From: a virus
Direction: 5' to 3' (one strand)
DNA length: 64,000 nt
Virus record (IMG/VR): IMGVR_UViG_3300029188_000196
Coordinates: 2,329-66,328 of that record
Shown: positions 1,800 to 48,694 of the stretch, piece after piece
How the letters are laid out: every line of letters begins with the position of its first letter
How positions within the stretch are numbered: position 1 is the first letter of the stretch
Notes under the pieces: model-generated
Seen by the model: only the letters and a program-made list of their open reading frames with translations
The model's database searches: none
What the model was told of the DNA's origin: nothing
Made by a program: the position numbers and the translations under genes

Positions 1800-3644
1800 C
1801 TACATAGACATCAAAAGAGCATCCAGTTCACGCTGTACCTCATTTTTGCTCGGAATTGCGCCAATCATGGGATTTTCTACGACCAGTCCATACTCCATTA
1901 CATCGCTGTTCATAATGCTTTGAATCCACTTGCTCCGATATAATCGACATCCCAGATTCATAGCGGAGTTCTCAGCCTTCTTATAATGATTTTTTCCAAT
2001 CAAAGTCTGAGATTCATCCAGTTCAAAAATCAAGAATTTCGTATTTTGCCGCCCACGAGAGATACCACGACACTGATAGCGACAGTCCTGTTTCCAGTTC
2101 ATTTCATCTAATATCGCACCCGCAAAAGCTCTAGATGAAAATCTATTGCAGATGTCATTTGCATTTTGCCAATGAATCGCCGTTGAAGAGTCATGACCGC
2201 TCTTTCGCAGAATTATGACCTGCAGGATTGGATGATATAGCAGTTCCACATATTCACAGTCGTCCAATCTGGTATGACAAGCCTTGCTAAAACGAATTTC
2301 ATTTTTAGCAATTGTAATAACTGGGCTACTATGGTTGATAAAGCAGGCGCTGGAAGCCGTCAGATATTCAGACTGATACATCGAATCTTGTTTTTTCCCG
2401 GCCCTCATATCAGCCATAGCATTTAATTCTACCACTTCTTCTGGCATATAGGCACTCAGACAAAGGCTGCGGATACTTTCATCGTTTATACCACTCCAGT
2501 TCGGATGAATGCCTACAAATCCTTTCAATGCTCCCTGTTTAATTACAACGATATCCTGTACCCCACACCTTTTGCTGCTGGATGCCACAAGATGTGCAGC
2601 TCGTGCAATCTCCGGTGAAACAATCGCTTCGTGATGTTCTGGGACATAAGCCGAGCATCGGTCGCCATTATTCTTCGTCACCTTCCCCAGCTTATAATCT
2701 ACCACGATGCTCTTCCGAGCTTCCAAATCACCCCAGCGGCGTTCGTTTTTCATGATGTTGGCTACCATCATGCCGTTCCACTTTTGCCTGCCTCGCAGGG
2801 TGCTGCGCTTCTTTTTCGTAAGGATCATTGCAATTTGGTCGTAGTCGTACCCTTGAATAAAGGCCAGAAAAATAAAACGTACTGTCTTTGCTTCTTCCGG
2901 CTCGATTACCAGCTGCCCATCCGTTGTATGCCGATATCCCATCAAATCAGCTACCGGATATTGGCCAGTCATAATACGCTGATCATACGAAAGAATCATG
3001 CGACGGCTCTTATTACCAGATTCCCAGTCTGCTAAAAGAGCCTGAACATCCAAGCTATACTGGCTGTCAGGATTAAGCGTGTAAATATTTTCAGTTTCAA
3101 AGTACACACCAATCGGATGAGCCGGATGCATAGTTTTCAGGGCAGCGATTTGTGTCATGCAATCCGAGAAATTTCGAGCAAAACGCGAAACACTGGCACA
3201 AACAACCAAGTCGATTTTTCGCTCTTTTGCATCCTGCATCATGCGCTTAAAAGCATCACGCTTTCTCAGTGATGTACCGGATTTTCCTTCATCACTGTAT
3301 ATATTCTGCAGTGTCCAGTTCTCGGTTTCTGCAATCTTTTTAGTGTAATAGAGAGTTTGATTTTCAATTGAAGAAATCTGCTCTTCGCTGGAAGTACTAA
3401 CACGGGTATAAACCGCCACACGTTTCAGATTACTGTCATAAATAGATGGCGTGGGTTTTGCCGGACGGAAATAGTCTTTTGCCGTTTTCTGGCAGTGGTC
3501 CGTCTGCTTATGAATTCTACCACGAATTTCCGCTTTTCGTCTTTCTGCTTCCGTATGTCGGCTCTGCCAGTCCGTTCCAAGTGGGAGCATCTCAGTTTGT
3601 CCTGCAGGAATATACTCTATGGCTTTTTGTCCTTCTACAATCAT
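1800..3644 (-). CDS. Large serine recombinase (integrase)
   Basis: Resolvase catalytic motif 'VAVYTRVSTSSEEQ...SVSRFARN' followed by a recombinase domain and a long C-terminal extension. 614 aa, with about 75 aa ahead of the catalytic domain. Confidence 0.9.
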   Translation of the reverse strand: MIVEGQKAIEYIPAGQTEMLPLGTDWQSRHTEAERRKAEIRGRIHKQTDHCQKTAKDYFRPAKPTPSIYDSNLKRVAVYTRVSTSSEEQISSIENQTLYYTKKIAETENWTLQNIYSDEGKSGTSLRKRDAFKRMMQDAKERKIDLVVCASVSRFARNFSDCMTQIAALKTMHPAHPIGVYFETENIYTLNPDSQYSLDVQALLADWESGNKSRRMILSYDQRIMTGQYPVADLMGYRHTTDGQLVIEPEEAKTVRFIFLAFIQGYDYDQIAMILTKKKRSTLRGRQKWNGMMVANIMKNERRWGDLEARKSIVVDYKLGKVTKNNGDRCSAYVPEHHEAIVSPEIARAAHLVASSSKRCGVQDIVVIKQGALKGFVGIHPNWSGINDESIRSLCLSAYMPEEVVELNAMADMRAGKKQDSMYQSEYLTASSACFINHSSPVITIAKNEIRFSKACHTRLDDCEYVELLYHPILQVIILRKSGHDSSTAIHWQNANDICNRFSSRAFAGAILDEMNWKQDCRYQCRGISRGRQNTKFLIFELDESQTLIGKNHYKKAENSAMNLGCRLYRSKWIQSIMNSDVMEYGLVVENPMIGAIPSKNEVQRELDALLMSM

Positions 3645-5882: not shown

Positions 5883-7514
5883 TCAATCTTTCTCGTATTT
5901 TTCAATCAGGCATTGATGTTCTTTAGTGTCCTTGTCGTAATTAATTCCTACGAGTAGGATATCTCCAGTATAGCTCAGAATCGAAGACGGATACTTTTTG
6001 TCTTTTATCTGTTGCATGGCTGTCGCAGCATTTTTACTCCACTTCAATTCAACGACCATCGCTGGATATGATGAAATATACTCTGGCTTCGGTATGAAAA
6101 CAAAATCTGCAAAGCCTCGGCCAGTTGGCAGCTCCCGAATCGGTTTGAAATAATACTGCATTGCGCTCAAGTATGCGATTGCCAGTACACTGCTCAACGA
6201 ATTTTCGTTATGATACTGGATTACCGATACATATTCATTATGGATTTTCTCAATTTGAGCAGCGACTGTTATGCCATCCATGTCCAATGTTGCATCAAGT
6301 AGACGTTCTGAATCTCGCTGGAAAGACAGCATCTCATTCCACGCTCCACTTTCGACTGCTGCTGTGAGCTCCTGCCGAATTTCTTCATTGGGTACGAAAG
6401 CCGTCTTCAATTTTTGATTAAACCCAAGATATCCCAGATGAATCATATAGGTCAGCACATCGTCCCTACTTTTTATATTAACTGTATCATTTTTGAACGT
6501 CGCTGTGTTCACCTTGACCTCTGCACCAGAAAGCATCTCGATGATGGCCGTTTTTAGTCCATCGAAATCCATATTAATCAGTGGCACAATTGCATCATAG
6601 GAAGCAGTTTCTGACCAATAGCTTTTGAATTCTCCTCGCAGCATTACACTGACAACCGCTCTAGGATTATAGACTTGATAATCCTTCAGAAGATATCCGT
6701 CATACCACCGCTTCACCTCATCGAAATCCTGATGGTACTCCTCCGCCAGTTTCCGCACCTCATCTTCTGTAAATCCAATATATGGTGCTAGTCTGCTTGC
6801 ACTCAGCATTGTAAATTCATCAAAATTATTCAGTGCCGACTGAGTTTTTTCCTTCTTTATGGGAAGGATGCCTGTCAGATAAGCCAGTTGAATATACTTT
6901 GTTGGCTCTGTTCCTTTGAACATTCCTCTGAGGAAATTGATGTAATCTTCCTGTGCCTTCGTATTAGCAGCCTCGTCACGAATAAGAACATCCCATTCAT
7001 CAATAATGACGATGAACTTTTTTCCTGTTAGGGCATTGATTTGTGATAAAGCCTCTGGCAGCGACTTTGTTTCCTCTGGAAGCGTATCTGGATAGTACTC
7101 CTTAAGCTCTGCAATTGTCCTCTCAGAAATGTAAGGAACTACCTGTTCCGCTCCCCCCGCTGGTTCCATACACCATTGAATATCAAGATGAATTACGTCA
7201 TATTGATTTAAGTGCTTCTTAAAATCCGCGCTCTTGCTGATTTCCAAATCTGCGAACATCGCTTCTGAGTCGCAGCCTCTACTATAGTAAGCTGTGAGCA
7301 TATTCGCTGTAATAGACTTACCGAATCTTCTCGGACGGCTGTTGCAAATATAACCTTGCAGTGTATTTAAAACTCTATTTGTGTATTTAATGAGTCCGCT
7401 TTTGTCCACATAGATTTCAGAATTCAAAGCGACTTGGAACGCAGAATTGTCTGGATTCACAAACATTCCCATATCGTATCCCGTTCCTTTCCGTGACTGT
7501 TTGATACAAATCAC
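5883..7514 (-). CDS. AAA-ATPase-like (PF09820-type) plus PD-(D/E)XK (PDDEXK_9-type) family protein
   Basis: 'SRPRRFGKSITANMLTAYY' P-loop region typical of the 'predicted AAA-ATPase' family, with a C-terminal nuclease-like region. The likely true start is the internal ATG at 7472 ('MGMFVNPDN'), preceded by AAAGGAA. A TTGCTA-17-TAAAAT promoter sits at about 7528-7556 on the minus strand. Confidence 0.75.
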   Translation of the reverse strand: MICIKQSRKGTGYDMGMFVNPDNSAFQVALNSEIYVDKSGLIKYTNRVLNTLQGYICNSRPRRFGKSITANMLTAYYSRGCDSEAMFADLEISKSADFKKHLNQYDVIHLDIQWCMEPAGGAEQVVPYISERTIAELKEYYPDTLPEETKSLPEALSQINALTGKKFIVIIDEWDVLIRDEAANTKAQEDYINFLRGMFKGTEPTKYIQLAYLTGILPIKKEKTQSALNNFDEFTMLSASRLAPYIGFTEDEVRKLAEEYHQDFDEVKRWYDGYLLKDYQVYNPRAVVSVMLRGEFKSYWSETASYDAIVPLINMDFDGLKTAIIEMLSGAEVKVNTATFKNDTVNIKSRDDVLTYMIHLGYLGFNQKLKTAFVPNEEIRQELTAAVESGAWNEMLSFQRDSERLLDATLDMDGITVAAQIEKIHNEYVSVIQYHNENSLSSVLAIAYLSAMQYYFKPIRELPTGRGFADFVFIPKPEYISSYPAMVVELKWSKNAATAMQQIKDKKYPSSILSYTGDILLVGINYDKDTKEHQCLIEKYEKD

Positions 7515-10429: not shown

Positions 10430-12661
10430 TCATTTTATAAACCGTTTCCGGTATGCGTTATCCCGCATGACCTGTCCATCATAGTAGCTGGCGGTATTGC
10501 GGAAGTCTTCAATATTGCTGTCCATCTCCACTTTTGTTCGAGTGTCATCGAACCAATGAACACTGTACTTCAGCGGAGAGTAAACCGTGATGGACAGGAT
10601 GAACGCTTTGCAGTGTTCCCCTGTCAATCCATTCAAGAATGCTACGGTTCCCTCTCGGCCCTTGGGAAGCTGTCTCATCCACTGCACCGCTTCTTCTCTG
10701 CGGTCGTAGTCATCTTCCAGCTCATCCCAGTAGTCTTCCAGATAATCGAGCTTGTCCTCCAGCTTCTGGGCTTCGGTCTCATCCTGCTCTATCCGTTTTC
10801 TCAACCGCTCGATTTCCTCTTTTCGCTCAGTCAGGGCCGCTTCATCTATCGTTTCATCTCCAAGCAAGTCCCGCCGGGTCTCCATCGCATCTTTCTGGCT
10901 TTGAAGAAGGCTCATTCTCTTATGGGCAGCTTCTGCGTCTTTCTGGAGTGCGATGATTTGCTTTTTGTAGAAACAACGGTCACGCTCCATGAAGTCAATC
11001 TTCTGCAGGTTTTCAAGCCGTGCCTGCATCTGAATCACAAAGTCATCGGCCTCATGAGTAAGAAAGTCGGTATTCTCTGCGTACCGTCCGCTCATAATGT
11101 CTGCCACGCTCACATCATCCCGAATGGGGGCGCTCGACAACTGGAAGCGTTCTATCACGGCCCTGCGGATAACACGGACAATCTGCTCTTCGTAGACACT
11201 TTCGGCATGGCAGATGCTCTTTCCATTGTTCTGCTTCGCCGAAGGGCAAAACCATATAGGATTCAGATTTCTATTTCTTACATTGAAAAATCGTCCGCAG
11301 CTTCCGCAGATAAGCCGTCCTGAAAAAGCCCACTGTGTTTTTTCCTCTCTCTTGTGCGAATCCGATTTTGCATTGACGATCTTTTGCACCTTTTCAAACA
11401 GTTCCCTGCTCACAATCGCTGGATGATGGTCTTTAATGTAGTACTGCTGAACTTCACCTTTGTTTTTCCGCACTTCATGCGACAGATAGTCAGCAGTATA
11501 GCTTTTCTGTACCAGAACATCTCCAGTATACCGTTCATTGCGAATCATCCCAGCAATCCGACCGTTTGTCCATCCGGTGTCAAGCTCGCTGTTAAGCTGA
11601 CCTTTCTTGGATTTGACCTTGCGCAACTTCTGTGCACTGCTCTCCGGAGCAGGAATGTGCTCACGGTTCAATTTCCTTGCGATGTCTGCAAACGAGAACC
11701 CTTCTGCGACCTCTTGGAAGATGCGCCGGATAACTACAGCTTCCTCCTTAACGATTTCAACTGCCTTATACTTGTAGCCGCTTTCGCTGGTAATCATCTC
11801 ACCATTGTAGCGGTATCCATAGATGTCAACATTCCGCACATCTCCACGCTTAAAGCGCATCTTATTGCCAAGGTTGATGTTGCCGGAGATGCTTCGGCTT
11901 TCCTCTTGCGCAATAGCCCCCAGTGTAGTAAGGATGAATTCACTGGTCGGGTCTGCTGTATCGAGATTTTCTTTCTCGAATAGAATCGTCACATTGTTTT
12001 CTCGAAGCAAATCCAGTGCCATCATAAAATCAGCCGTATTTCGGGCGAATCTCGAAATCGACTTGCAAATCACGCGGTCGATTTTCCCTGCCTTGCAATG
12101 CCGAAGCAGTCTGCGGAAGCCGGTACGCTTTTCACTGTTCGTGCCAGAGATACCATAGTCCGAATATACACCGATGGGATTCCACTCAGGGTTGGCTTCA
12201 ATCAGCTGGTTAAAGTACCGTTCCTGCGTTTCATAGGAGTTTTCCTGGTCAGATGAATCCGTTGAAACACGGATATAAGCGGCAACATTCAGCGTTCCAG
12301 TCTTCTGCTTCGTTGCACGGAAGCTCTCAGCAGAGATGAAATCACCCGGTTTTGCTTCATATACCAATTCCTGAGAGGGCTCATCACTCCTCTCAACCGG
12401 AATCGTAATGTCCTGCCGTACCACGGCGGCCTTCTTTGTGGTGACTGCTTGGTCGATGAACGCCTGCAATGCGGGGTCAACTTTCTTTTTTTGTTGAGTA
12501 GACTTGTCTTTCGTCTGATTTTTCTTGGGTGAAAAAAGAACCGCAGCGGAACCCAGTTCAGGCAGGTTCACAGCTGCGGTCTTGTTAGATGTCTTTGGCT
12601 GTACCGACTTTTCTTCAGTCATCTTCTGCAATTTTGCCAAGAAATCAGTTGTTGTACTCAT
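10430..12661 (-). CDS. Large serine recombinase (integrase) with about 125-aa N-terminal extension
   Basis: 'LNVAAYIRVSTDSSDQ...CKSISRFARNTADF' catalytic domain, recombinase domain, zinc ribbon 'CGSCGRFF', coiled coil. AAAGGAGAG RBS precedes the first ATG, so the Lys/Thr/Gln-rich extension is translated. Its stop overlaps the start of the next recombinase (ATGA). Confidence 0.9.
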   Translation of the reverse strand: MSTTTDFLAKLQKMTEEKSVQPKTSNKTAAVNLPELGSAAVLFSPKKNQTKDKSTQQKKKVDPALQAFIDQAVTTKKAAVVRQDITIPVERSDEPSQELVYEAKPGDFISAESFRATKQKTGTLNVAAYIRVSTDSSDQENSYETQERYFNQLIEANPEWNPIGVYSDYGISGTNSEKRTGFRRLLRHCKAGKIDRVICKSISRFARNTADFMMALDLLRENNVTILFEKENLDTADPTSEFILTTLGAIAQEESRSISGNINLGNKMRFKRGDVRNVDIYGYRYNGEMITSESGYKYKAVEIVKEEAVVIRRIFQEVAEGFSFADIARKLNREHIPAPESSAQKLRKVKSKKGQLNSELDTGWTNGRIAGMIRNERYTGDVLVQKSYTADYLSHEVRKNKGEVQQYYIKDHHPAIVSRELFEKVQKIVNAKSDSHKREEKTQWAFSGRLICGSCGRFFNVRNRNLNPIWFCPSAKQNNGKSICHAESVYEEQIVRVIRRAVIERFQLSSAPIRDDVSVADIMSGRYAENTDFLTHEADDFVIQMQARLENLQKIDFMERDRCFYKKQIIALQKDAEAAHKRMSLLQSQKDAMETRRDLLGDETIDEAALTERKEEIERLRKRIEQDETEAQKLEDKLDYLEDYWDELEDDYDRREEAVQWMRQLPKGREGTVAFLNGLTGEHCKAFILSITVYSPLKYSVHWFDDTRTKVEMDSNIEDFRNTASYYDGQVMRDNAYRKRFIK

Positions 12662-22383: not shown

Positions 22384-25300
22384 TTACTTGAAGACCGAAT
22401 CATCCTCGTGGATCATGCCGTTGATCTTATCGGCAACGGTCTGTGCGAGTTCATCATCGTTCCGGGCATTGTAGCCATTGACCGTGATATACACACCGCC
22501 AAGGTTGGTCGTCCGGGTGGTGCCGCCTCCGGCCAGAGCCGCCTGCGGGAAGTTCCAGCCAGAGCCATCGAAGTGCGGCAGGGTCAGTTCCGGCAGGCTG
22601 AAGGAACTGATGCCCTCCATTCCCTGCTGTACCTTTGCTGCCATCGACCTGATCTGGCTGATCAGTCCGCCCTCGCCTTTCTTGATGCCACCGGAAAGCA
22701 GTTTCATAAAGTCGGGCATATAGGTGTCCGCATCTGCCAGAGGTCCTTCATCCGGCACAGAGAAGTGCAGGAACGAACGGATACCGCTTGCCACACTCTT
22801 GACCGCATTGCCGACCCAGCTCACACCCTTCTTGATGCCTCCTGCAATGCCGCCAACGATGTCCTTGCCCCAGCTGACTGCCGAGGAAGCCACGTTCTTG
22901 ATACCGCCCCAGATGGACGATGCCACGTTGCCAATAGCAGATGCCGCATTGGAGATTCCGTTCTTGATGGCGTTTATTCCATTCGAGAATACCGAAGTGA
23001 CCTTGTTCCAGATATTTGTGACACCTTCCCGGAAGCCATCGCAGTTTTTCCAGAGAGCGGTCAGTCCAAGACCGATGCCGCCAACGGCTGCCACTGCGAT
23101 ACCTGCAGGACCCGCCAAACCAGCAAGTGCCGTGCCTGCGGATGCGAGGAAACCACCTGCGGAGCTTGCTACCCCTGCAAGGGCTGTACCTGCACCAGCA
23201 GCCAGGCCGGATACGGTCGTACCCACAGAACCGAGCAGACCGGAAAGCGTTGTGCCGACTGTCCCGGCAATACCGCCCAGCGAAGAACCGATAGACGATA
23301 CGATGCCGGAAAGACTACCGCCTAAGCCGCCGATCTTCGATACCACACCAGAGAGCAGTCCGCCCAGATTCGACAGGATTCCCCCACCGCTGGAGCCAAG
23401 GCTTCCCAGCTTCGAGATGATGCCGGAGATTCCCTCTCCCAGACCGCCCATTTTGGAGGTCAGTCCGGAGATCAGATTGCCAAAGTTCGACACGATCTGA
23501 CCGCCATCTGCACTGCCGATTTTTGACAGGAAACTGCCGATGTTGGATAACAGACCACCGCCGTTCTCTGTACCGAGGACATTGCCGAGGTTCTGCATGG
23601 TATCACCAATGTTTCCGATGGTGCTCTTCATGGAACCAAGCTTGTCCACAAGCCCCGTGACCGTATTGACCGTATCGCCGACTTTGCTGATACCATTGCC
23701 CAGACTCTTTAAGAAATCCGAGTTGAAAGTATCGCCAAGGCTTCGGATCGAATTTCCAAGGGAACTGGTCTGAGAACTCAGCTCGCCAATGGAAGATTTC
23801 ATGTCCGCAAAACCCTGCTTTACTTCATCACTCATGCCGCCGACTGCGGTTTTGGTGATGCCCTGCAAGTCTGTCCAGAGCTGTTGAAACTGTGTTTTCA
23901 CACCGGAAAGGCCAGACATCAACTGAGTCTGGATACTACTGCCAACGCTCCGTGCAGCCGAACCGATTCCGCTCTGGTTTCTGCTGATTGTTGCAGCAAA
24001 GCCCCCGACCACCGAATCCATCCAGTCTCCCAGAGAATTCACAGGGGTCGTAAGGTTATTGCTCATTGACCCAGCCAGACCTTTCACGGCTTTAACTACA
24101 ACTTTTACATTTTTCTTGATACCACTTGCCAGCAGCTTCATAAAGTCTGGCATATACTCATCGGCATCGGACAGCGGACCTTCATCTGGCACTGAGAAGT
24201 GCATGACGGAACGAATCTTATCCGCAACACCATTGATGGCACTTGTCACCTCTCCGATCTTCGACTGAATGCCAGAAACGATATTCCCGATAATATCCGC
24301 ACCCCAAGAGAAAGCCTGACTTGCCAGCCCCTTGATATACGCAACTGCGCTGTTGAACCCTGCTTCAATTGCGGAACGAATGTTTCCGACCGTACTTATG
24401 ATGCCACTATGCATAGCAGTGAAAGCACTGATTGCCGCATCCCTTGCGCTGTTGCTGAAAGAAGTAACCGCAGTCTTTGCCGCATTCCACCCAGCAGAAA
24501 TTGTGGACTGGATCGTAGCGGTAACGGACGAAATCGTACTGCTGATGCCGGTCCAGATGGAAGAAACAGTGGACTGGATTGCAGAAAGGACCGTCGAGAT
24601 GACTGTCTTGATCGCATTCCATACCGTGCTCATCTGGGTCTGGATGCCAATCAGCAGCGGAGATAGGAACGATACAATGGCGTTCCACACCGTAGTCACT
24701 GCGGTCTGGATCGCAGTCAACGCGGTGGAGATCGCGGTCTGGATGGCTGTCCAAATCGTAGAGAAAGTTGTTTGCAATCCGGTCAAAATCGGCGTTATAA
24801 ATGCAACGATGGCGTTCCAGATGGAAGTGATTTTCGTCTGGATTGCGGTCAATGCCGCACCGATCAGGATTTGTATTGCCTGCCAGATGGTCTCAAACAA
24901 ATATTTGAACGCATCCAACAGAGGTTTCATGGTGTTATAGATGCCATTCCACACCGAAGTGATGGTCGTGCTGATGGTATTCATGACCGTAGTGATCGCG
25001 GTCGAGATCGCCGTCCACACAGTTGTCACCGTGGTATGGATCGTATTCAGCACGGAAGAAACTGCTGTAGAAATGGCAGTCCAGATGGTGCTGAAGGTCG
25101 TCTGGATACTCGTAAGGACAGTCGTAAAGAAACTCGAAACTGCTGTAAATACTGTCGTTGCCACACTCTGGATAGCGGAAACTGTGTTTGAAAAGAAGCT
25201 GCTGATTCCGCTCCACACGGTCTCGAAGAAGCTCTTGATACTGCCCCAGACCGTCTGCCAGTCTGTCCCAAACAGACCGAGGAACACATCCAGTGCGCTC

Positions 25301-27375
25301 TTTAGTGCGGTAAGCGTCGTGGAGAATACAGACTTCACACCTTCCCAGATGCTGGCGAAGATTTCCTTTACCGCTTCCCATGCACCGCTCCAATTGCCGG
25401 AGAACACATTGGAAAAGACATCGAACAGACCGAGCAGCGTATCCAGAACCGTACTCAATACCGTAGCCATAATCTGGAATGCTCCCTCGAACAGCGGTGC
25501 AAGCACCTGACAGAAGCCATCCCAGACGGCTTTCAGTACCTCAGTGACATCCTTAAAATCAAAGCCCAGCCCGTTGATCCGCTGTGTCAGCTGGTCGCAG
25601 AAGCCTTTCACCTTGGAAACAATGTCGTTCCAGATGCCGGTAATGGCAGTGCGGAACTCCTCGTTGGTGTTCCAGAGGTTCATGAACGCCGCCACCAGCG
25701 TACCGATGACCGCCACCACTGCTACGACCGGCCCGGACAGACCACCCAGAACCACACCCAGCTTGCTGAACACACCGCTGGCACTGCCCACATGGGTGAT
25801 GAGAAGCCGGACACCCTTTGCAAGAGAACTGAATCCCCGCATCGCTGTGCCGACGGTCGATATGGTCTTGCCCAGCACAATAAGCAACGGACCAATGGAT
25901 GCCGCCAGAAGTCCGATCTTGATGATCGTTTCCCTGGTGCTTTCATCCATGCTGTTCAGCTTGTCCACGAACTGCTGCACGGCAGATACGATCTTGCGGA
26001 TGGTGGGCATCAGGATATCGCCAAAAGAAATAGCCAGCTCCTCCAGCTGAGATTTCAGGATGGTAAGCTGACCATTTAAATTGTCCTGCATGGTCTCTGC
26101 CATGCTCTCGGATGCGCCATCGCAGTTTTCAATGGCACCACGCAGTTTGTTGATGTCCGTCTCGCTGGAATTCATCAGGGCAAGGAAACCGGACATGGCA
26201 TTCTTACCGACCAGTGCCTCTGCGTTGGCTGCCTTCTCAGATTCCGACAGCCCGGAGAATGCCACACGGCAGTCCGCAAGGATGTCGTTTAGGCTTCTCA
26301 TGCTGCCATCTGCGTTGCTGGTCGCAATCGTGACCTCACCGATGTTTTTACCAACATAGGTCACTTCACCGGAAAGGTTGTTCATGATGGTACGAAGGGA
26401 AGTACCAGCCTGAGAAGCCTTGATACCACTGTTTGCCATCAGACCGATGGCTTCTGCGGTATCCTCTGCCGAGAACCCCAGTGCACCGGCAATAGGCGCA
26501 CAGTACTTGAACGTCTCGCCCATCATGGAGACATTGGTGTTCGCATTGGAAGAAGCGGCCGCAAGGATATCTGCAAAATGCCCGGAATCTGCCGCAGACA
26601 AACCGAAAGCTGTGAGGGCATCCGTAACGATATCCGAAGTCGTAGCGAGGTCTTCACCGGATGCCGCCGCAAGGTTCATGATACCTTCGATACCGTTCAG
26701 CATGTCGGAGGTCTTCCATCCGGCCATGGTCATATACTCCATCGCCGAAGCTGCCTCGGATGCAGAGAACTTGGTCTTTGCACCCATCTCACGGGCTTTC
26801 GCACGAAGCTGGTCGAAGTCATCCCCGGTCGCACCGGAAATGGCAGAGACCTTGCTCATCTCGGAATCGAAATCTGCTGCAGTCTTCACTGCAGCAGTGC
26901 CAAGACCCGTTACAGCGGCAGTCACCGGCAGGAACTTCTTACCGACATTCTCCACAGAAGATCCAATGTTCTGGAGCTTTTCTCCGGCTTCATCGATTTT
27001 GGCAAGAGTCGCATTCGTGGTCGCCGCCTGGTCCTGTAAGGATCGCAGATTCTGTTCAGTCTCCACGATCTCACGCTGGAGAGCATCGTACTGCTGCTGG
27101 GTGATCTCACCGTTGGCAAGCTGCTCATTAGCCTGCTGTGCGGCAGTCTTCAGCGTTGCCAGCTTTTCCTTGGTGGCTTCAATGGCATCCTTGAGCATCT
27201 TTTGCTTCTGGACGACCAGTTCTGTATTGGAGGGGTCCAACTTCAGGAGTTTGTTGACATCCTTCAGTCCGGACTGCGTCCCCTTGATTGACTTGTTTAC
27301 ACTTTCCAGTGCTTTGGAGAGCTTTGTGGTATCGCCGCCGATCTCAACGGTGATGCCCTGGATTCTGGATGCCAT
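22384..27375 (-). CDS. Tail tape measure protein (about 1660 aa)
   Basis: N-terminal TMP helical region ('KLDPSNTELVVQKQKMLKDAIEATKEKLATLKTAAQQ'). Long internal T/V/W-rich repeats ('STIWTAIQTAISTALTAIQTAVTTVWNAIVSF...'). Gly/Ser-rich tract. Duplicated 'HFSVPDEGPL(S/A)DAD(E/T)YMPDFMKLL' modules. Start at 27375 with AAGGAGGTGG RBS. Confidence 0.9.
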   Translation of the reverse strand: MASRIQGITVEIGGDTTKLSKALESVNKSIKGTQSGLKDVNKLLKLDPSNTELVVQKQKMLKDAIEATKEKLATLKTAAQQANEQLANGEITQQQYDALQREIVETEQNLRSLQDQAATTNATLAKIDEAGEKLQNIGSSVENVGKKFLPVTAAVTGLGTAAVKTAADFDSEMSKVSAISGATGDDFDQLRAKAREMGAKTKFSASEAASAMEYMTMAGWKTSDMLNGIEGIMNLAAASGEDLATTSDIVTDALTAFGLSAADSGHFADILAAASSNANTNVSMMGETFKYCAPIAGALGFSAEDTAEAIGLMANSGIKASQAGTSLRTIMNNLSGEVTYVGKNIGEVTIATSNADGSMRSLNDILADCRVAFSGLSESEKAANAEALVGKNAMSGFLALMNSSETDINKLRGAIENCDGASESMAETMQDNLNGQLTILKSQLEELAISFGDILMPTIRKIVSAVQQFVDKLNSMDESTRETIIKIGLLAASIGPLLIVLGKTISTVGTAMRGFSSLAKGVRLLITHVGSASGVFSKLGVVLGGLSGPVVAVVAVIGTLVAAFMNLWNTNEEFRTAITGIWNDIVSKVKGFCDQLTQRINGLGFDFKDVTEVLKAVWDGFCQVLAPLFEGAFQIMATVLSTVLDTLLGLFDVFSNVFSGNWSGAWEAVKEIFASIWEGVKSVFSTTLTALKSALDVFLGLFGTDWQTVWGSIKSFFETVWSGISSFFSNTVSAIQSVATTVFTAVSSFFTTVLTSIQTTFSTIWTAISTAVSSVLNTIHTTVTTVWTAISTAITTVMNTISTTITSVWNGIYNTMKPLLDAFKYLFETIWQAIQILIGAALTAIQTKITSIWNAIVAFITPILTGLQTTFSTIWTAIQTAISTALTAIQTAVTTVWNAIVSFLSPLLIGIQTQMSTVWNAIKTVISTVLSAIQSTVSSIWTGISSTISSVTATIQSTISAGWNAAKTAVTSFSNSARDAAISAFTAMHSGIISTVGNIRSAIEAGFNSAVAYIKGLASQAFSWGADIIGNIVSGIQSKIGEVTSAINGVADKIRSVMHFSVPDEGPLSDADEYMPDFMKLLASGIKKNVKVVVKAVKGLAGSMSNNLTTPVNSLGDWMDSVVGGFAATISRNQSGIGSAARSVGSSIQTQLMSGLSGVKTQFQQLWTDLQGITKTAVGGMSDEVKQGFADMKSSIGELSSQTSSLGNSIRSLGDTFNSDFLKSLGNGISKVGDTVNTVTGLVDKLGSMKSTIGNIGDTMQNLGNVLGTENGGGLLSNIGSFLSKIGSADGGQIVSNFGNLISGLTSKMGGLGEGISGIISKLGSLGSSGGGILSNLGGLLSGVVSKIGGLGGSLSGIVSSIGSSLGGIAGTVGTTLSGLLGSVGTTVSGLAAGAGTALAGVASSAGGFLASAGTALAGLAGPAGIAVAAVGGIGLGLTALWKNCDGFREGVTNIWNKVTSVFSNGINAIKNGISNAASAIGNVASSIWGGIKNVASSAVSWGKDIVGGIAGGIKKGVSWVGNAVKSVASGIRSFLHFSVPDEGPLADADTYMPDFMKLLSGGIKKGEGGLISQIRSMAAKVQQGMEGISSFSLPELTLPHFDGSGWNFPQAALAGGGTTRTTNLGGVYITVNGYNARNDDELAQTVADKINGMIHEDDSVFK

Positions 27376-27400
27376 TTGCGTAACCACCTCCTTGCAGGCA

Positions 27401-27479
27401 TGAAAAAAGCCCATCTGCACGGAGCAGACAGGCTAAAAAATGGGTATAAAAATACCCTGCCAGCTTTCACCAGCAGGGT
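27401..27479 (-). terminator. Two tandem rho-independent terminators between the ATPase moron and the TMP gene
   Basis: On the minus strand, ACCCTGCTGGTGAAAGCTGGCAGGGT + ATTTTTAT, then CCCAT...ATGGG + CTTTTTTCA directly before the TMP RBS. Confidence 0.55.
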
Positions 27480-27491
27480 TGATTAGAATTT

Positions 27492-28889
27492 TTACTTGTA
27501 AAGGTCTTCCAGCGTTATCAGCCGAACTTCACCTCGCTCTTGTGCCTGAAGAAGTCCATCTGTGAATCCGCCTTTCGAGAAGATATAGTAGTGATAGTTG
27601 TTGCCCTTTCCAAAAACTGAGGCATAATTCCGAATCAAATCGAGTTCATCCACACCGATTTTCTCATTCCGGTATTTGCATGAACCGATGATATAGTCTT
27701 TGCCCTCAACAGGAGTTCCGACGATATCAATCTGTATCTGCTTTTTCTTCTTCGGGTCTGTCCCCCACCACTGGCCGATTTCACTCAGCTCAATAGGAAG
27801 GCTATCCGAATAATAGAGCAGGTAATCCTGACACATCTTCTCATAAATTAGACCCATGTAATCCGGAAGATACTGTTTTACAGCGTGTGGATAGGTCTTT
27901 GCAATTCTGCCAGAGTCAATGGCACTCATATTGATTGGCACAAACCGATACCAGAAACGGAAGAAGTTATCAGCCAGCAGATAGATGGTTTTCTTACCCG
28001 GTTTTTCTGTAATCGGTGTTTCTTTCTTAGCAATGCCAAGGTCGATCAGCGTTTTCAGGTACTTCGATACGACCGAGTTCTCCTCGCCGACCTTCATCTT
28101 GATATCGTTCATTCGGGAAGCACCTTCTGCAATCGCTTTAATGATTGCATTATAAATGGCTGGCTCCCGGAGTTCCTGCTTCAGTAAGTTCCCCGGTTCC
28201 TCATACAGATAGCTGGAGCGGTCAAAGAAATTATCCAACAGAGCTTCATCCACACTATCTCGCACATCCAACTTATTGATATAGTGGGGAACTCCTCCCG
28301 TGATTCCATAAATCAGGGAATTGTCTTCTGCGGACAGATTTGGGTGGAACACAGCGGTTTCTTTATAGTCTAGCGGCTCAATCTTAAACTGGCCAGTACG
28401 TCTGCCATACAGCGGACTTTCCTTGCCAAGCACCTGACTCTCCATGAAGCTCATAGAGGAGCCGCAAAGAATCAGGTACATCTTTGATTCTGTCCACTTG
28501 TGGTCGATGATGTGCTGCAGCATCGCTGAAATGGCCGGCTTTGCCTTTGCAAGATACGGGTACTCGTCAATAACAAAGACTATTCGTTTTTCCTTTGAAA
28601 GTGCAGTCAGCTCGTCCAAGGCAGCATCATAAGACCTGAACTCTGGTGCAAACTCCATATCTGGCCGCTCAAAACTCATGATTGACTTTGAGAGAGCCTC
28701 CAGATTTTCCTTTCCTGTCGTATTCAATGCAGAAAAGAAAATGGTAGGCTTATCTTTACAGAACTCATTGATCAATGCTGTTTTACCAACACGTCGTCTG
28801 CCGTAGATGACGATGCACTCAAACTTATCACCAGCGTACCGTTTATTCAGTTTCCGAAGCTCATCCTCACGGCAATAGAATTGATTCAT
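27492..28889 (-). CDS. AAA+ ATPase (Arch_ATPase/DUF234-type 'ATP-binding protein'); moron in the tail module
   Basis: Walker A 'GRRRVGKTALI', 'VFVIDEYPYL' Walker B, DUF234-like C-terminal region. It has its own TTGACT-17-TATTAT promoter and its own terminators, and sits between G/GT and TMP where no conserved tail gene is expected. Confidence 0.7.
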   Translation of the reverse strand: MNQFYCREDELRKLNKRYAGDKFECIVIYGRRRVGKTALINEFCKDKPTIFFSALNTTGKENLEALSKSIMSFERPDMEFAPEFRSYDAALDELTALSKEKRIVFVIDEYPYLAKAKPAISAMLQHIIDHKWTESKMYLILCGSSMSFMESQVLGKESPLYGRRTGQFKIEPLDYKETAVFHPNLSAEDNSLIYGITGGVPHYINKLDVRDSVDEALLDNFFDRSSYLYEEPGNLLKQELREPAIYNAIIKAIAEGASRMNDIKMKVGEENSVVSKYLKTLIDLGIAKKETPITEKPGKKTIYLLADNFFRFWYRFVPINMSAIDSGRIAKTYPHAVKQYLPDYMGLIYEKMCQDYLLYYSDSLPIELSEIGQWWGTDPKKKKQIQIDIVGTPVEGKDYIIGSCKYRNEKIGVDELDLIRNYASVFGKGNNYHYYIFSKGGFTDGLLQAQERGEVRLITLEDLYK

Positions 28890-28950
28890 ACGTCCACCTC
28901 CAATAATTATACTCGTGAGTTAGTAACTCGTAAGTTACTTCTTTGCGAGT

Positions 28951-28979
28951 ATAATAAATCAGATGGTCTGCAAAGTCAA
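28951..28979 (-). promoter_or_regulatory. Sigma70-type promoter (TTGACT-17-TATTAT) of the ATPase moron, followed by a nested palindromic 5'UTR
   Basis: The -35 and -10 hexamers are 17 bp apart. Downstream are nested inverted repeats TTATACTCG...CGAGTATAA and GTAACtcgtaaGTTAC (28908-28954), then a GGAGGTGG RBS. Confidence 0.5.
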
Positions 28980-28997
28980 GTAAAATAAGTCGAACCT

Positions 28998-29539
28998 TTA
29001 GAACCGGTCGAAGTCCGACTGACTTGCCAGCTCTTTGTACGGATAGTCGTCGTTCTGCCGCTCCGTGAACATATCATTGACCAACCCGATGGTCAGCAGG
29101 TCGAGGTCGGCGATGCTGATACCGAGCTGTACACAGCGCAGCAGAAAGAGCGGGGTGGTCATTTCCCGCTCACTTTTTCGAGGTTTTTTCTGGATTCCAC
29201 CTCGGTCTGCACGTTCAGACCCCACAGTTCGATCAGCTGGGGAAGGATCTGATAAATGGAGAACGTGTTGAACTGGTCCAGGAACTCCTCCGGGCTGTCC
29301 GGCACATTCGCAGGGTCAGCATGACGGGCCATCAGCCATGCCAGATCCTCGAACATTTCCAGACTGAACAGGTCGAGGTTGGAATTGTCCTCATCGTTCT
29401 CACCCACGCTCTTTTCCAGCTGGCGCAGGTCTTTATAGATGTCACGGCCGAACTTGATGCGGTACAGGCGAGGCACAGCGGCACTTGCCTTAAAGATGAC
29501 TTCCTTGCCATCGATCTCGATTTTCTTTGTAACTGCCAT
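28998..29539 (-). CDS. Tail assembly chaperone GT, -1 frameshift fusion product
   Basis: The -1 frame is open from the slippery site to 28998 ('GIQKKPRKSEREMTTPLFLLRCVQLGISIADLDLLTIGLVNDMF...'). Conserved position between the major tail protein and the TMP. Confidence 0.6.
29159..29539 (-). CDS. Tail assembly chaperone G (gpG-like)
   Basis: 'MAVTKKIEIDGKEVIFKASAAVPRLYRIKFGRDI' is a typical TAC N-terminus. Start at 29539 with GGAGGA 9 nt upstream. It ends 7 codons after the slippery site. Confidence 0.7.
   Translation of the reverse strand: MAVTKKIEIDGKEVIFKASAAVPRLYRIKFGRDIYKDLRQLEKSVGENDEDNSNLDLFSLEMFEDLAWLMARHADPANVPDSPEEFLDQFNTFSIYQILPQLIELWGLNVQTEVESRKNLEKVSGK
29183..29189 (-). other. 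Programmed -1 ribosomal frameshift slippery heptamer A_AAA_AAC (G/GT)
   Basis: The minus-strand sequence AGA AAA AAC in the G frame becomes CAG AAA AAA C in the T frame. This is a classic X_XXY_YYZ site near the 3' end of G. Confidence 0.65.
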
Positions 29540-29572
29540 AATCGTAATCCTCCAAAATTTCATGTAAAATTG

Positions 29573-29593
29573 GCAGAGCCGAAGCCCTGCCGT
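29573..29593. repeat. Direct repeat copy 1 (CAGAGCCGAAGCCCTGC hairpin-like) flanking the SPFH gene
   Basis: A 17-bp element identical to that at 30461-30481. It forms a GGCAG...CTGCC stem followed by a U-rich tract on the minus strand. Confidence 0.7.
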
Positions 29594-29605
29594 ATATCGT
29601 GTTTC

Positions 29606-30439
29606 TTACTCTGCCGGGTCAATGCTGACCAGTGCATTACCGCCACTCACAGTCGGCAGCTTTCCATCCCACTTCTGGATCTTCTGGTAATCGATCAGCG
29701 TATCGGACAGGCTTTCTGCCAGTTTGCGGTTTGCCTCTGCCTGTGCTTCTGCGGCAATGGAAGTCTTCTGGGCTTCCGCCTCTGCATTGGTGATCGCCAC
29801 CTGCTTATCCGCTTCTGCCTTGGCAATGGCGGCTTCATTCTCGATCTTCTGCTTATCTGCGTTCTGCTGGGCAATGGACTTCTGCTGGATGGCTTCGTTG
29901 TAGGCATCCTCGAAATTCATGTCGTTGATGACGACCTTATTCACGAACACAACGTCCTCACCATACTTCTGCACAAGGGACTCTGCCAGCTTCTGCTGCG
30001 CCAAAGGTTCAATCTTAGTGCGGTTGGTTACCTCATTGGGGCCAAGTTCAGCCATCGCAGACTTGATGGCAGATGCCACCAGCTCGTCACCGACCAAATT
30101 CTTGATGTCGGACACATTCGCATACAGCCATGCACTCTTCTCAGGAAGCACCTGATAGGTCACGATCACATCTGCAGCATACACAGGTGTTTTATCGGCG
30201 GCTTCGCCCCAGACCTGTGCTTCGATATGCTTATCCTGCTGCTTGTTGTTGACCTTGTGGATACTCTGCACAAAGGGAATGCAGAAGTTGAGCTTGCCAC
30301 TCTGAATGGTGGTCTCCTTGATCTGACCGAAGCTGGTCTTCACGCCGGTGTAGCCGGTAGGGATGATGTGGAACGAGCAGACAGCCAGCACCAGAACGAT
30401 GATCACTGCGAACAAAGGAAAAATCTTCTTCATAATCAT
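29606..30439 (-). CDS. SPFH/Band 7 (prohibitin/HflKC-like) membrane protein; moron in the tail module
   Basis: N-terminal TM helix 'IFPLFAVIIVLVLAVC', SPFH core 'IIPTGYTGVKTSFGQI...', Ala/Glu/Gln-rich coiled-coil C-terminus. Inserted between the major tail protein and G/GT. Confidence 0.8.
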   Translation of the reverse strand: MIMKKIFPLFAVIIVLVLAVCSFHIIPTGYTGVKTSFGQIKETTIQSGKLNFCIPFVQSIHKVNNKQQDKHIEAQVWGEAADKTPVYAADVIVTYQVLPEKSAWLYANVSDIKNLVGDELVASAIKSAMAELGPNEVTNRTKIEPLAQQKLAESLVQKYGEDVVFVNKVVINDMNFEDAYNEAIQQKSIAQQNADKQKIENEAAIAKAEADKQVAITNAEAEAQKTSIAAEAQAEANRKLAESLSDTLIDYQKIQKWDGKLPTVSGGNALVSIDPAE

Positions 30440-30460
30440 ATACCTCTTTATAATAATGTA

Positions 30461-30481
30461 AGCAGAGCCGAAGCCCTGCGG
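30461..30481. repeat. Direct repeat copy 2 flanking the SPFH gene
   Basis: Same 17-bp element as 29573-29593. It lies immediately downstream of the major tail protein gene and acts as a terminator-like hairpin. Confidence 0.7.
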
Positions 30482-46522: not shown

Positions 46523-48694
46523 TTATTCTTCCAGTCCTGCGCACCATGCGATGCCTGCCAGAACAAAGTACACACATGGAAGTGCGACACCGTTACCCCA
46601 GAGTTTGTACTCAGCCGCATCCGAATACGGATCTGCCAGCCATTTCCGGATTTGCTTCTCCGTCTTCGGCTTCTTCGCATGGGTCACGATCTTACGGTGT
46701 GTTTCAAACACATCTGCCCAGAATGCCAACTCTTCCTCGGTTGGATTTTCCGTTCCAAGGTCTCTGCACCACCAATCCGGGAATCCTTGAAGTCTGGCAC
46801 ACTCGGTCGGTGTCAGGCGGCGGACGGTGTAGGTCACAGGTGTGGACTGTGCTTCCGGGTTGTCGATGACAAGACGGTCATTGAAAGCGTCCTGCCCATT
46901 GAAGCCGCTGGGATGTGCCCCGCTCGCCACGGTACCAGCCACACCCTCGTTCAGATGCGGTGCCGGTGCAATGGTGGTCGGGTCTTTGTAATCCCGTGCC
47001 ATCAGAGTCGGAGATACATTCTCCTCTACTCGCATAAAGGAGCCAGTGGTCATGGCATACACATCTTCCGGTGCGCAGACTGCATGACGGTCAGTGGCGT
47101 CCAGCGTAAAGCAGACATCCTCATTGACCCCATCTCCCTGTGGACCATTCTCGTCCTTGCGGCCGATCATGTTACCCTGCAGGACGAAGGTCTGCATCTG
47201 GTCGCTTCGGGTCGCCATGAGTGCGCCAGACTTTCCATGCAGGTCAATCAGCTCATTGCGCTGATTCACATGGAAAGCAGTCACATCTTCCGGCTGTACC
47301 ACAAAGGTCTGCTGTTTCATTCCCGGCTCTGCTGCCAGTGCCGCTGACTTGTCCCCCAGATCCCGGACTTCATCTCTCTGGTTCTGGGTAAAAGCAACAG
47401 GCTCTACCACACAGATGCCGCCCTGATTGCAAGTCGGAGCACCGCCGCTGCGGTCCAGTGTCCGGGAAGTTTCCGCTTCATAGAAACCGCTATGCGGATT
47501 GTCGGACATCATGGAATGGCTGGCTTTCGAGCAGACACCATAGCATTTCGGGACGAACAGTGTCTGGTCGTTGTTACAGCCAAGGGTGGCCGATTTTTCT
47601 TCCTGCCAGATGACTCCCTTGCCGCCGCCCTCACACCCGGAACGGATCTTCAGCGTGACTGCCGGAGAATTATCTGCACCATCCATGACCAGCGGAACAT
47701 TGCCACCGCCCGTACCGCATCGGCTGGTCAGCGTTTGAACCTTGCCATCTTCGGAAATCTTCACCCTGCTGTCTGCCGGATGATTTTCCAATGCAATGGC
47801 GGCAGGTACGACACCTGCCCGGAGGGTCGGTGACCGTTCTTCCTCATATCCGATGCTTCTGGCATTTGCGGAATGCTCAGTACAGAAACCAGCAGCTTCA
47901 AGAATCTCTCCCGGCTTGTTCAGGCCGATTCTTCCTGCACAGCTTGCCGTTCCAATGCCGCTTTCAGAACTGGCGGCAGCTCTTTGCCACGCACGGAAGC
48001 TCTCCGGAGAATACCGAGACAGGCCTTCGGACTTAAATAGTACTTTTCCGGCACTTTGACCTGCAAAGTCTGCGACAAGGAACAGACGTTTTCTTCGTTG
48101 AGCCAAGCCGAAGTGTTGAGCATCGAGAGTTCTGTATGCCACGCTCCATCCGTCTCCCAGAATAATATCGGCGGTTGCCCACTTTCCCTTTTCAGGCATA
48201 GGCAGCGGTGGCGCTTCTGGCTCTTTGACTGCGATGATTTCTTCAAGGACCGACTTAAAGTCCTCACCGGATTTGCTGGAGAACAGTCCGGGAACGTTCT
48301 CGACGACAAAATATCGTGGGTTTTCTCCATCGGTTGCTTCCCTCATTTCTTTAATAATCCTGACCGCCTCATAAAACAGACCACTTCGGGTTGTCTTTTC
48401 TCCGCCGTGGTCGATATGCTGAACGCCCTCTCTTTTTCCAGCCACAGAAACGGACTGGCAAGGGAAACCACCTGTGATGATATCTACAGGAGGGAGTTCC
48501 GCTCCACGAAGACTGGAAATATCTCCGTAGTGGATTACCTGCGGCAGTCGTTTTGTAGTCACACGAATTGGGAATGGTTCAACTTCACAGTTCCAGACCG
48601 GCTGGATTCCTGCAAGCAGCCCTCCCAATTCAAAACCCCCGGAACCTGCAAAGAGGCTGCCGAGGGTCAAGGTCTTATTCTGTTCTGTACTCAT
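46523..48694 (-). CDS. DNA (cytosine-5)-methyltransferase, large (723 aa; probably multispecific phage-type)
   Basis: Motif I 'LFAGSGG', motif IV 'GFPCQSVSVAG', motif VI 'FVVENVPGL'. A long variable region suggests several target-recognition domains. Confidence 0.85.
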   Translation of the reverse strand: MSTEQNKTLTLGSLFAGSGGFELGGLLAGIQPVWNCEVEPFPIRVTTKRLPQVIHYGDISSLRGAELPPVDIITGGFPCQSVSVAGKREGVQHIDHGGEKTTRSGLFYEAVRIIKEMREATDGENPRYFVVENVPGLFSSKSGEDFKSVLEEIIAVKEPEAPPLPMPEKGKWATADIILGDGWSVAYRTLDAQHFGLAQRRKRLFLVADFAGQSAGKVLFKSEGLSRYSPESFRAWQRAAASSESGIGTASCAGRIGLNKPGEILEAAGFCTEHSANARSIGYEEERSPTLRAGVVPAAIALENHPADSRVKISEDGKVQTLTSRCGTGGGNVPLVMDGADNSPAVTLKIRSGCEGGGKGVIWQEEKSATLGCNNDQTLFVPKCYGVCSKASHSMMSDNPHSGFYEAETSRTLDRSGGAPTCNQGGICVVEPVAFTQNQRDEVRDLGDKSAALAAEPGMKQQTFVVQPEDVTAFHVNQRNELIDLHGKSGALMATRSDQMQTFVLQGNMIGRKDENGPQGDGVNEDVCFTLDATDRHAVCAPEDVYAMTTGSFMRVEENVSPTLMARDYKDPTTIAPAPHLNEGVAGTVASGAHPSGFNGQDAFNDRLVIDNPEAQSTPVTYTVRRLTPTECARLQGFPDWWCRDLGTENPTEEELAFWADVFETHRKIVTHAKKPKTEKQIRKWLADPYSDAAEYKLWGNGVALPCVYFVLAGIAWCAGLEE

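Follow-up and report, generated by a model that had tools for sequence, protein, structure and literature searches.

A single-gene ATPase cassette of the moron type in a variable cargo slot before the tape measure gene of a human-gut prophage

Gene content of the locus

The window analysed here is a stretch of 64,000 nucleotides (nt) of the IMG/VR virus record IMGVR_UViG_3300029188_000196 (positions 2,329 to 66,328), derived from a prophage of the Heliusvirales type. Between the genes for the tail assembly chaperone (G/GT) and the tape measure protein (TMP) lies a gene for an AAA+ ATPase of 465 amino acids (aa). An earlier note on this DNA, made by a model from the letters alone, had placed the gene there, and open reading frame (ORF) and PHROG matches agreed with this arrangement on the minus strand. 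Promoter, palindrome, ORF and the first of two terminators constitute, with high confidence, a self-contained, horizontally mobile single-gene moron cassette. The following features were located:

27437..28993 (approximate), minus strand: mobile single-gene cassette of 1.55 kb with promoter, candidate operator, ORF and terminator 1 (blastn against 118 loci and GC content)
27492..28889, minus strand: AAA+ ATPase gene, 465 aa, ATG start (ORF; ATPase_2 and DUF234 domains; PADLOC PDC-S27)
28979..28951, minus strand: predicted sigma-A-type promoter TTGACT-17-TATTAT, −35 box 28979..28974, −10 box 28956..28951 (consensus scan and conservation)
28906..28955, strandless: 50-bp palindrome with 23-nt arms and a 4-nt centre, candidate operator, overlapping the −10 box and the start site
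28897..28901, minus strand: Shine-Dalgarno sequence GGAGG of the ATPase gene, left free by the palindrome (sequence and folds)
27444..27479, minus strand: predicted terminator 1 (T1), stem 27479..27454 and tail ATTTTTATAC, part of the cassette
27403..27434, minus strand: predicted terminator 2 (T2), stem 27434..27408 and U-run, assigned to the phage backbone

Only one ORF is present between the promoter and T1, and a conserved toxin or antitoxin partner was not found there. The insert has a GC content of 0.42-0.46, its flanks of 0.52-0.55; this foreign base composition is one of the supports of the moron reading. No tRNAs were found in the window.

Distribution and mobility of the cassette

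About 200 related loci were the base of the comparison. In blastn alignments with 118 loci the 5' edge of homology clustered at 28979-28995, just upstream of the −35 box, and the 3' edge either at 27486-27499, past the stop codon, or at 27436-27447, past T1. Phage copies, copies adjacent to restriction-modification (RM) genes and copies adjacent to insertion sequences (IS) shared the same start of homology at the −35 box. The promoter is thus present also in non-phage copies and travels with the ATPase gene. A transposon-like element with defined ends was considered and rejected, since the edges are ragged (28979-28995; 27436-27499) and the edge sequences contain no terminal inverted repeats.

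The exact ATPase protein was indexed in 648 blocks of a public assembly collection and had this prophage context in every case read. Homologues with 73-99 % identity were present in 80 species-representative genomes, mostly of Lachnospiraceae, but also of Oscillospiraceae, Faecalibacterium, Phascolarctobacterium and Coriobacteriia. Among the carriers are the cultured isolates Fusicatenibacter saccharivorans AM67-22ACA (L031), Blautia glucerasea MSK.18.94 (L039), Coprococcus sp. OM04-5BH (L042) and Blautia sp. OF03-15BH (L057). The cassette occupies more than 70 non-phage chromosomal sites which are unrelated to one another: the 247 ORFs in the flanks of the 80 genome loci fell into 203 clusters without a recurrent partner family, and traces of the flanks of the window phage were detected at only 10 of the 80 loci. 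Examples of neighbours are type I hsdM/hsdS genes together with a trp operon, IS elements within capsule loci and a single SIR2/TIR gene. The hsdM/hsdS genes adjoin the P0086 copies, the SIR2/TIR gene is near one P0033 copy, and N6_Mtase accounted for one of 132 nearest neighbours.

A protein identity of about 90 % across genera suggests recent horizontal gene transfer at first sight; this was ruled out for most copies. Between copies with 77-92 % protein identity the synonymous sites are saturated (proportion of synonymous differences, pS, 0.64-0.86), and the ratio of nonsynonymous to synonymous substitution rates (dN/dS) was 0.03-0.05 where measurable, thus around 0.03, a sign of very strong purifying selection. 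The cross-genus identity therefore reflects mostly constraint rather than recent transfer, and only the group with 94-99 % identity is recent. In Coprococcus and Jutongia genomes, chromosomal ATPase cassettes were immediately preceded by short TMP-like fragments with 79-100 % protein identity (L042:4775-4898, L047:236-359, L076:14-91); these may be debris of a transfer from phage to chromosome.

A selfish or addiction-type element, in which the ATPase–nuclease-like protein maintains or spreads the cassette or the prophage without protecting the cell, would fit the extreme diversity of insertion contexts without a partner gene, the very strong sequence constraint and the many metagenome contigs that stop at the cassette edges. 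It would also resemble the toxin–antitoxin (TA) modules at the same phage site, where ParE/Phd pairs are the commonest alternative cargo. However, terminal inverted repeats and target duplications are lacking, the homology edges are ragged, the insertion sites have no sequence in common, and the single gene has no antitoxin-like partner. We consider this explanation unlikely.

The interval between gpT and the tape measure gene

The tail genes on either side of the cassette are all on the minus strand:

29159..29539, minus strand: gpG tail assembly chaperone (phrog_709, E=4.1e-39); the ORF extends to an upstream ATG at 29563, and identical contigs carry a 126-aa call
28998..29225, minus strand: gpT, in the −1 frame, part of the G/GT frameshift product (phrog_3033, E=2.7e-23)
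29189..29183, minus strand: G/GT slippery heptamer A_AAA_AAC (heptamer and frame read from the sequence)
22384..27375, minus strand: TMP, 1663 aa from the ATG at 27375 (phrog_1272, E=6.5e-265); identical contigs carry a 1663-aa call
27392..27387, minus strand: ribosome-binding site (RBS) AGGAGG of the TMP gene, 10 nt past the T2 U-run (sequence)

Eighty IMG/VR loci with a gpG of 96-99 % identity were surveyed, of which 64 also reach the TMP (96-100 % identical). In these 64 loci the distance from the gpT stop codon to the TMP ATG had about 24 different lengths between 76 and 3444 nt. Sixty-six loci had an identifiable cargo:

ParE/Phd: 19/66 loci
DUF3990 operon: 18/66 loci
Abi_2: 12/66 loci
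AbiEi-like and AbiEii: 8/66 loci
AbiEi-like, helix-turn-helix protein and DUF6036 nucleotidyltransferase: 3/66 loci
ATPase (DUF234): 3/66 loci
Others, one with a group II intron reverse transcriptase: 3/66 loci

The gpT–TMP interval is a hypervariable cargo hotspot of this prophage, which is very common in the human gut, and the ATPase gene is not a conserved tail component. The earlier note had called the gene a moron and had named conservation as a tail component in homologous phages as a finding that would speak against it; three of the 66 loci carry the ATPase. The moron assignment is borne out by the foreign GC content, the absence or replacement of the gene in near-identical phages and the promoter that travels with it. 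Deposited Heliusvirales phages have at this junction no insert (a 14-nt gap, L001), a reverse-strand gene of 325 aa, an acetyltransferase gene or other small ORFs.

A function of the ATPase in the lytic growth of the phage, be it tail assembly, replication initiation, degradation of host DNA or counter-defence, is close to refuted. The gene has the orientation of the late operon, so read-through would express it, and the protein has an Orc-like fold. Against such a role stand its presence in only three of the 66 near-identical phages sampled, the more than 70 non-phage contexts and the foreign GC content. Moreover, PHROGs and NCBIfam held no family for the ATPase, 50,697 deposited phage records yielded only eight distant matches (<34 % identity), and a viral structure library contained no close fold for the ATPase model.

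The position of the cassette has a precedent. Gene 15 of phage HK97, the element for which the term moron was coined, lies between the genes of the chaperone and the TMP and confers superinfection exclusion (PMC3594210). Like the cassette, it has a promoter and a terminator of its own, is transcribed independently and stands out by its GC content (PMC3594210), and it occupies the same chaperone–TMP slot. HK97 gp15 is a small inner-membrane protein of an Escherichia coli phage, whereas the protein encoded here is a 465-aa cytoplasmic ATPase of a Firmicutes gut phage, and the slot of the latter is far more variable, with at least eight cargo types.

Three side observations concern the slot. A group II intron reverse transcriptase/maturase (RVT_1 and GIIM) was inserted in the slot at L125:6600-8000. 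The sole near-empty slot has a length of 76 nt and retains T2 (L145:4566-4643). It was rejected as an ancestral empty site, since the spacer is similar to the right junction found in the L195 type; a secondary deletion is the more likely origin. An inverted repeat, GTGCTTAT-N11-ATAAGCAC, was present just past the gpT stop codon in many cargo variants (L129, L142, L151, L159 and others), and in some variants it surrounds the TTGACT-17-TACAAT promoter of a gene for an AbiEi-like protein of 194 aa. By its sequence this element is a further conserved regulatory module of the slot.

Hotspots with a fixed position in conserved phage genomes and interchangeable defence or TA cargo are known from P2/P4-type prophages and satellites. 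Unlike these, the slot described here is inside the tail operon and immediately precedes the TMP gene, with a conserved terminator-like hairpin as its border. Compared to the TA and two-gene Abi modules of the same slot, the ATPase cassette is a single-gene element without an adjacent toxin–antitoxin pair.

The ATPase protein

The protein matched Pfam ATPase_2 (PF01637) with residues 4-207 (E=7.8e-27; 95 bits, cut-off 33.2) and Pfam DUF234 (PF03008) with residues 313-408 (E=4.2e-18; 66 bits, cut-off 22.5). Residues 1-414 matched the PADLOC hidden Markov model of PDC-S27 (E=3.7e-56); weak secondary PADLOC matches were to two sibling families, PDC-S01 (AAA_14 and DUF4143) and AAA-ATPase_like with PDDEXK_9. 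The family ATPase_2/DUF234 (COG1672, PDC-S27) is very large, with 8,743 clusters at 50 % identity (E≤1e-3), which agrees with the earlier description of DUF234/Arch_ATPase proteins as a widespread, uncharacterised family. PDC-S27 was proposed as a single-gene candidate system by "guilt by embedding" in RM, BREX and DISARM loci (bioRxiv 10.1101/2024.01.29.577857). It consists of an ATPase fused to a PD-(D/E)xK domain and belongs to the most prevalent candidates in archaea (PMC12988326); the family is also among the most prevalent candidate defence genes of rumen and gut bacteria (PMC12988326, PMC13356809). The ATPase of the window has the same architecture of an ATPase and a PD-(D/E)xK superfamily domain as PDC-S27 (COG1672) (PMC12988326, PMC3424549).

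An AlphaFold model calculated with a 79-sequence alignment had a predicted local distance difference test (pLDDT) score of 96.9 and a predicted template modelling (pTM) score of 0.92; a single-sequence model had a pLDDT of 40 and was not used. The model suggests a three-part design of an Orc1/Cdc6–STAND-like AAA+ domain, a winged helix and an Mrr-like PD-(D/E)xK-fold domain. The AAA+ module is followed by the winged helix, as in Orc1/Cdc6 initiators, and an α-β-β-β-α-β core is located at residues 338-438 of the model. The profile of the C-terminal domain matched the Mrr-like protein AF1548 (1y88) among PDB sequences (E=2.9e-5) in an alignment that pairs the D and ExK motifs, and DUF234 has been placed in the PD-(D/E)xK superfamily (PMC3424549). 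Alignments with PAB2304 (2qen) and SSO1545 (2fna), archaeal Walker-type ATPases of 350 aa and unknown function from structural genomics, covered the ATPase and winged helix only and left the C-terminal nuclease-like domain uncovered. The same three-part design occurs in the sibling families PDC-S01 (AAA_14 and DUF4143) and AAA-ATPase_like with PDDEXK_9, which recur among the neighbours; they are separate Pfam families and equally uncharacterised. A C-terminal sensor repeat domain (TPR, LRR or WD40) was not found, as the protein ends in the 135-aa nuclease-like domain. In comparison to Orc1/Cdc6 and the STAND NTPases (plant NLRs, CED-4, Avs5), the ATPase is devoid of sensor repeats and of an N-terminal effector; its putative effector is C-terminal, and it differs from Orc1/Cdc6 in having no link to a replication origin. 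An association of the gene with a replication origin or replication gene was found neither here, where it resides in the tail operon, nor elsewhere, where its neighbours are unrelated.

Residues of the ATPase motifs, Walker A G30..G35-K36-T37, Walker B D108-E109 and R163, are invariant in the 113 members of the clade and also conserved in 79 family representatives. In the nuclease-like domain the family consensus is E386-x-D388 and E403-x-K405, with E386 in 69 and E403 in 65 of the 79 representatives. All 113 clade members have Q386 and S403 instead of these glutamates; E350, D388 and K405 are retained and invariant. This clade thus differs from the PDC-S27 family at both positions, and further in being phage-carried with a conserved promoter and palindrome. 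Given Q386 and S403, the C-terminal nuclease site may be either non-canonical (SxK) or inactive.

An inactive nuclease would turn the protein into an ATP-switched DNA-binding regulator, comparable to the STAND regulators MalT/IniR or to Orc1/Cdc6, that changes host or phage expression. The SSO1545-like ATPase domain is indeed also found in the transcription regulator IniR (PMC5760070). The replacement of both conserved glutamates in 113 of 113 clade members, the winged helix with the Orc1/Cdc6-like fold and the conserved palindrome at its own promoter are in line with this explanation, to which we assign a low probability. E350, D388 and K405 are kept and invariant, and the window contains no second copy of the operator, hence no regulon is visible. 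Some active restriction enzymes (Cfr10I family) have SxK variants of the motif, a further argument against a dead nuclease.

Promoter and palindrome

TTGACT-17-TATTAT matches the consensus at 10 of 12 positions and was the joint best among nine matches in 18 kb. Such promoter-like matches were not more frequent than in shuffled sequences (9 vs 12±3.4), so the match alone is not significant and conservation carries the weight. In 89 unique upstream sequences from unrelated contexts, the −35 box was TTGACT in 61 and the −10 box TATTAT or TAATAT in 73; the spacer had 17 nt in 82 of the 86 sequences with an alignable −35 box. Upstream of the −35 box conservation dropped to background. The promoter proposed in the earlier note was thus found at 28979..28951 and is kept across unrelated contexts. 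Transcription is predicted to start near 28944 from the promoter position. The 58-nt promoter and leader had a mean column identity of 89 % while synonymous sites of the ORF are saturated, hence the non-coding part is under constraint.

The arms of the palindrome (28906-28928 and 28933-28955) are 78 % complementary. The palindrome also contains a 12-nt direct repeat with copies at 28911-28922 and 28926-28937, spaced by 15 nt. The left arm, ATACTCGTAAG, begins inside the −10 hexamer. Since the start is predicted about 7 nt downstream, this arm would be missing from the transcript of the own promoter. The palindrome register was kept among 41 distinct sequences: 84 % of the alignment cells were paired, in comparison to 29-44 % when the arms were slid against each other. 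No other occurrence of the palindrome motif was found in the window.

The palindrome could act as RNA hairpin in the 5' leader on mRNA stability or translation. RNA that comprises the left arm has a folding energy of −16.8 kcal/mol (z −2.5), and read-through transcripts of the phage late operon would hold both arms. The transcript from the own promoter would lack the left arm, however, and it folds no better than shuffles (z −0.36). Mismatches in the arms had no bias to G·U (40 wobble-type vs 89 A·C-type cells; 10 vs 11 distinct events), covariation did not exceed the shuffle controls, the Shine-Dalgarno sequence is left free by the hairpin, and Rfam had no match in 27200-29700. An RNA function is therefore improbable. 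The earlier description as a nested palindromic 5' untranslated region and candidate operator holds for its second part: since its left arm reaches over the start and into the −10 box, the element is not simply a leader structure, and a DNA operator is the somewhat better supported reading of the sequence.

The cassette encodes a single protein, and this protein has a winged helix; autoregulation is therefore the economical hypothesis, and we give the repression of the promoter by the ATPase protein an even chance. The most divergent homologues have other repeat sequences, e.g., of the GATTCAG or TAAGTAACAT types, and the same homologues have a cluster of substitutions where the predicted recognition helix begins (residues ~268-277). 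The joint change of repeat and helix is suggestive of an operator link, a weak indication that is confounded by phylogeny and overall divergence.

An ATPase-type leader at DUF3990 cargo (L195, L182 and L183) had raised the idea of an operator common to unrelated cargo. This was ruled out: the leader piece is upstream of the DUF3990 operon's own promoter and absent from L142 and L168, which have the same cargo. The piece is a remnant of about 60 nt of the ATPase leader (…AAAGTAACTCACGAGTTAGTAACTTACGAGTATATTA…), located between the reverse-strand DUF3990 cargo and T2 (L195:5900-6016, L182, L183). From its sequence it appears to be the scar of a former ATPase cassette and so evidence of cargo replacement. 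A mirrored −10-like box arises from the palindrome on the opposite strand, TTCATA-17-TATACT at 28885..28913 (plus strand; 9 of 12 consensus positions), and is a possible antisense or divergent promoter towards gpT.

Terminators T1 and T2

Both hairpins have 11-bp stems and were the top two matches of a terminator scan over 18 kb. Folding yielded a ΔG of −18.6 kcal/mol (z −3.9) for T1 and −18.4 kcal/mol (z −5.6) for T2; none of 200 shuffles equalled them. Both have the form of an intrinsic terminator, a GC-rich hairpin followed by a U-run in the transcribed strand, and termination is predicted at each. The U-run of T2 ends at 27403, 10 nt before the AGGAGG of the TMP gene; scan, folds and gap agree with the earlier note on two tandem terminators ending about 10 nt before the TMP RBS.

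T1 is common to chromosomal copies of the cassette (L034, L035, L037, L042, L044, L047-49, L053, L054, L065 and L066), which adjoin β-lactamase-like, PhoH/PIN, fucose-pyrophosphorylase and IS110 genes. Hairpins of the T1 type with the same ATTTTTATACCC tail were also present 3' of other forward cargos and, inverted, after reverse-strand cargos. The T2 hairpin, GCCTGTCTGC-loop-GCAGATGGGC with a U-run, stands before the TMP RBS with nearly every cargo type and is kept also in the 76-nt near-empty slot (L145); a few slot variants have another hairpin with U-run in its place. In T2, two pairs are G·U and C→U changes have occurred three times independently, both compatible with the sense RNA only. 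A more distant Heliusvirales phage without cargo at the slot (L001) has no T2-like hairpin.

As T2 precedes the TMP gene whatever the cargo, it is almost certainly phage backbone and lies outside the cassette. The attribution of both terminators to the moron in the earlier note thus holds for T1, while T2 was seen with other cargos and in the near-empty slot. Likewise, a terminator does precede the TMP gene, as the proposed need for read-through or antitermination implies; transcribing through it is a property of the lineage and not caused by the ATPase insert.

Slot elements are conserved on both sides: …CTCGAC and GTGCTTAT-N11-ATAAGCAC on the left, the T1-type tail TATACCC and T2 on the right. 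The gpT–TMP interval might even be a dedicated, insulated exchange site for promoter-to-terminator defence cassettes, with the ATPase as a working single-gene immune system, a proposal we regard as doubtful. If true, cassettes would be swapped between phages and bacterial chromosomes, and the ATPase would sense foreign DNA as an ATP-switched protein that represses itself and has an SxK nuclease site of non-canonical form; its family is among the largest ATPase families still uncharacterised.

Function of the cassette in the lysogen

The ATPase gene probably belongs to a known kind of passenger gene that protects the host, and is not a part of the tail. In the lysogen it would be transcribed from its own promoter, and the protein would repress this promoter by binding of the winged helix to the palindrome. 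As ATP-dependent sensor or effector on foreign DNA it would provide the lysogen with a PDC-S27-type defence against phages or mobile genetic elements. T1 and T2 would keep the ATPase transcription out of the tail genes, and late phage transcription would have to pass both hairpins. A defence role is plausible because of the Abi and TA slot-mates, the PDC-S27 match (3.7e-56) and homologues beside type I RM genes. For defence or exclusion as such, the arguments on the two sides are about equal in weight; the explanation as a whole, a mobile, self-repressed moron with a defence-type ATPase in a prophage slot, is slightly favoured.

Several findings weigh against it. The only published test of PDC-S27 found was performed in E. 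coli B against T4, T5 and T7, and the PDC-S27 representative was not among the four protective systems (bioRxiv 10.1101/2024.09.26.614923). The chromosomal neighbours are mostly not recognisable as defence genes, and defence genes seldom have a dN/dS as low as 0.03. The canonical acidic residues at positions 386 and 403 are missing in the whole clade. Compensatory change in the palindrome did not exceed the shuffle controls, thus nothing identifies a factor that binds it. T2 is conserved even with cargo transcribed away from the TMP gene, so an insulator role alone is insufficient, and neither a late-gene regulator nor an antiterminator was recognised by PHROGs in the ten ORFs upstream of terS.

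The element belongs to known kinds, as a moron, as cargo of a prophage defence hotspot and as a member of the PDC-S27 family. The loci surveyed represent a natural allelic series of one phage that differs almost only at the slot (ATPase, ParE/Phd, Abi_2, AbiE, DUF3990 or near-empty). The prophage is very widespread in the human gut and lends itself as a clean natural test system for this abundant and uncharacterised family of ATPases. The conserved promoter and palindrome of the cassette predict autoregulation through a specific DNA site. For annotation, the G/GT–TMP junction of Heliusvirales phages is thereby recognised as a cargo hotspot with a conserved terminator-like hairpin before the TMP gene whatever the cargo.

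Further observations in the prophage

A gene for a 277-aa Band_7/SPFH protein (29606..30439, minus strand) is located between the major tail protein gene and gpG. With a promoter-like site (30462..30435) and a hairpin 3' of the gene (29591..29572) it resembles a second moron slot. Of 69 related IMG/VR loci, 67 have the gene; it is missing from L001 and L002. At L003:1084-4392, ParB_N–N6_N4_Mtase genes are immediately upstream of the Band_7 gene, where otherwise the head genes stand. Several DNA methyltransferase genes were found in the phage at 44000..50800 (minus strand), including a C5 methylase of 723 aa (46523..48694). A member of the sibling ATPase–nuclease family AAA-ATPase_like (PF09820) with PDDEXK_9 (PF08011), 543 aa in length, is encoded at 5883..7514 (minus strand) by the prophage end, flanked by the genes of large serine recombinases at 1800..3644 and 10430..12661 (minus strand).

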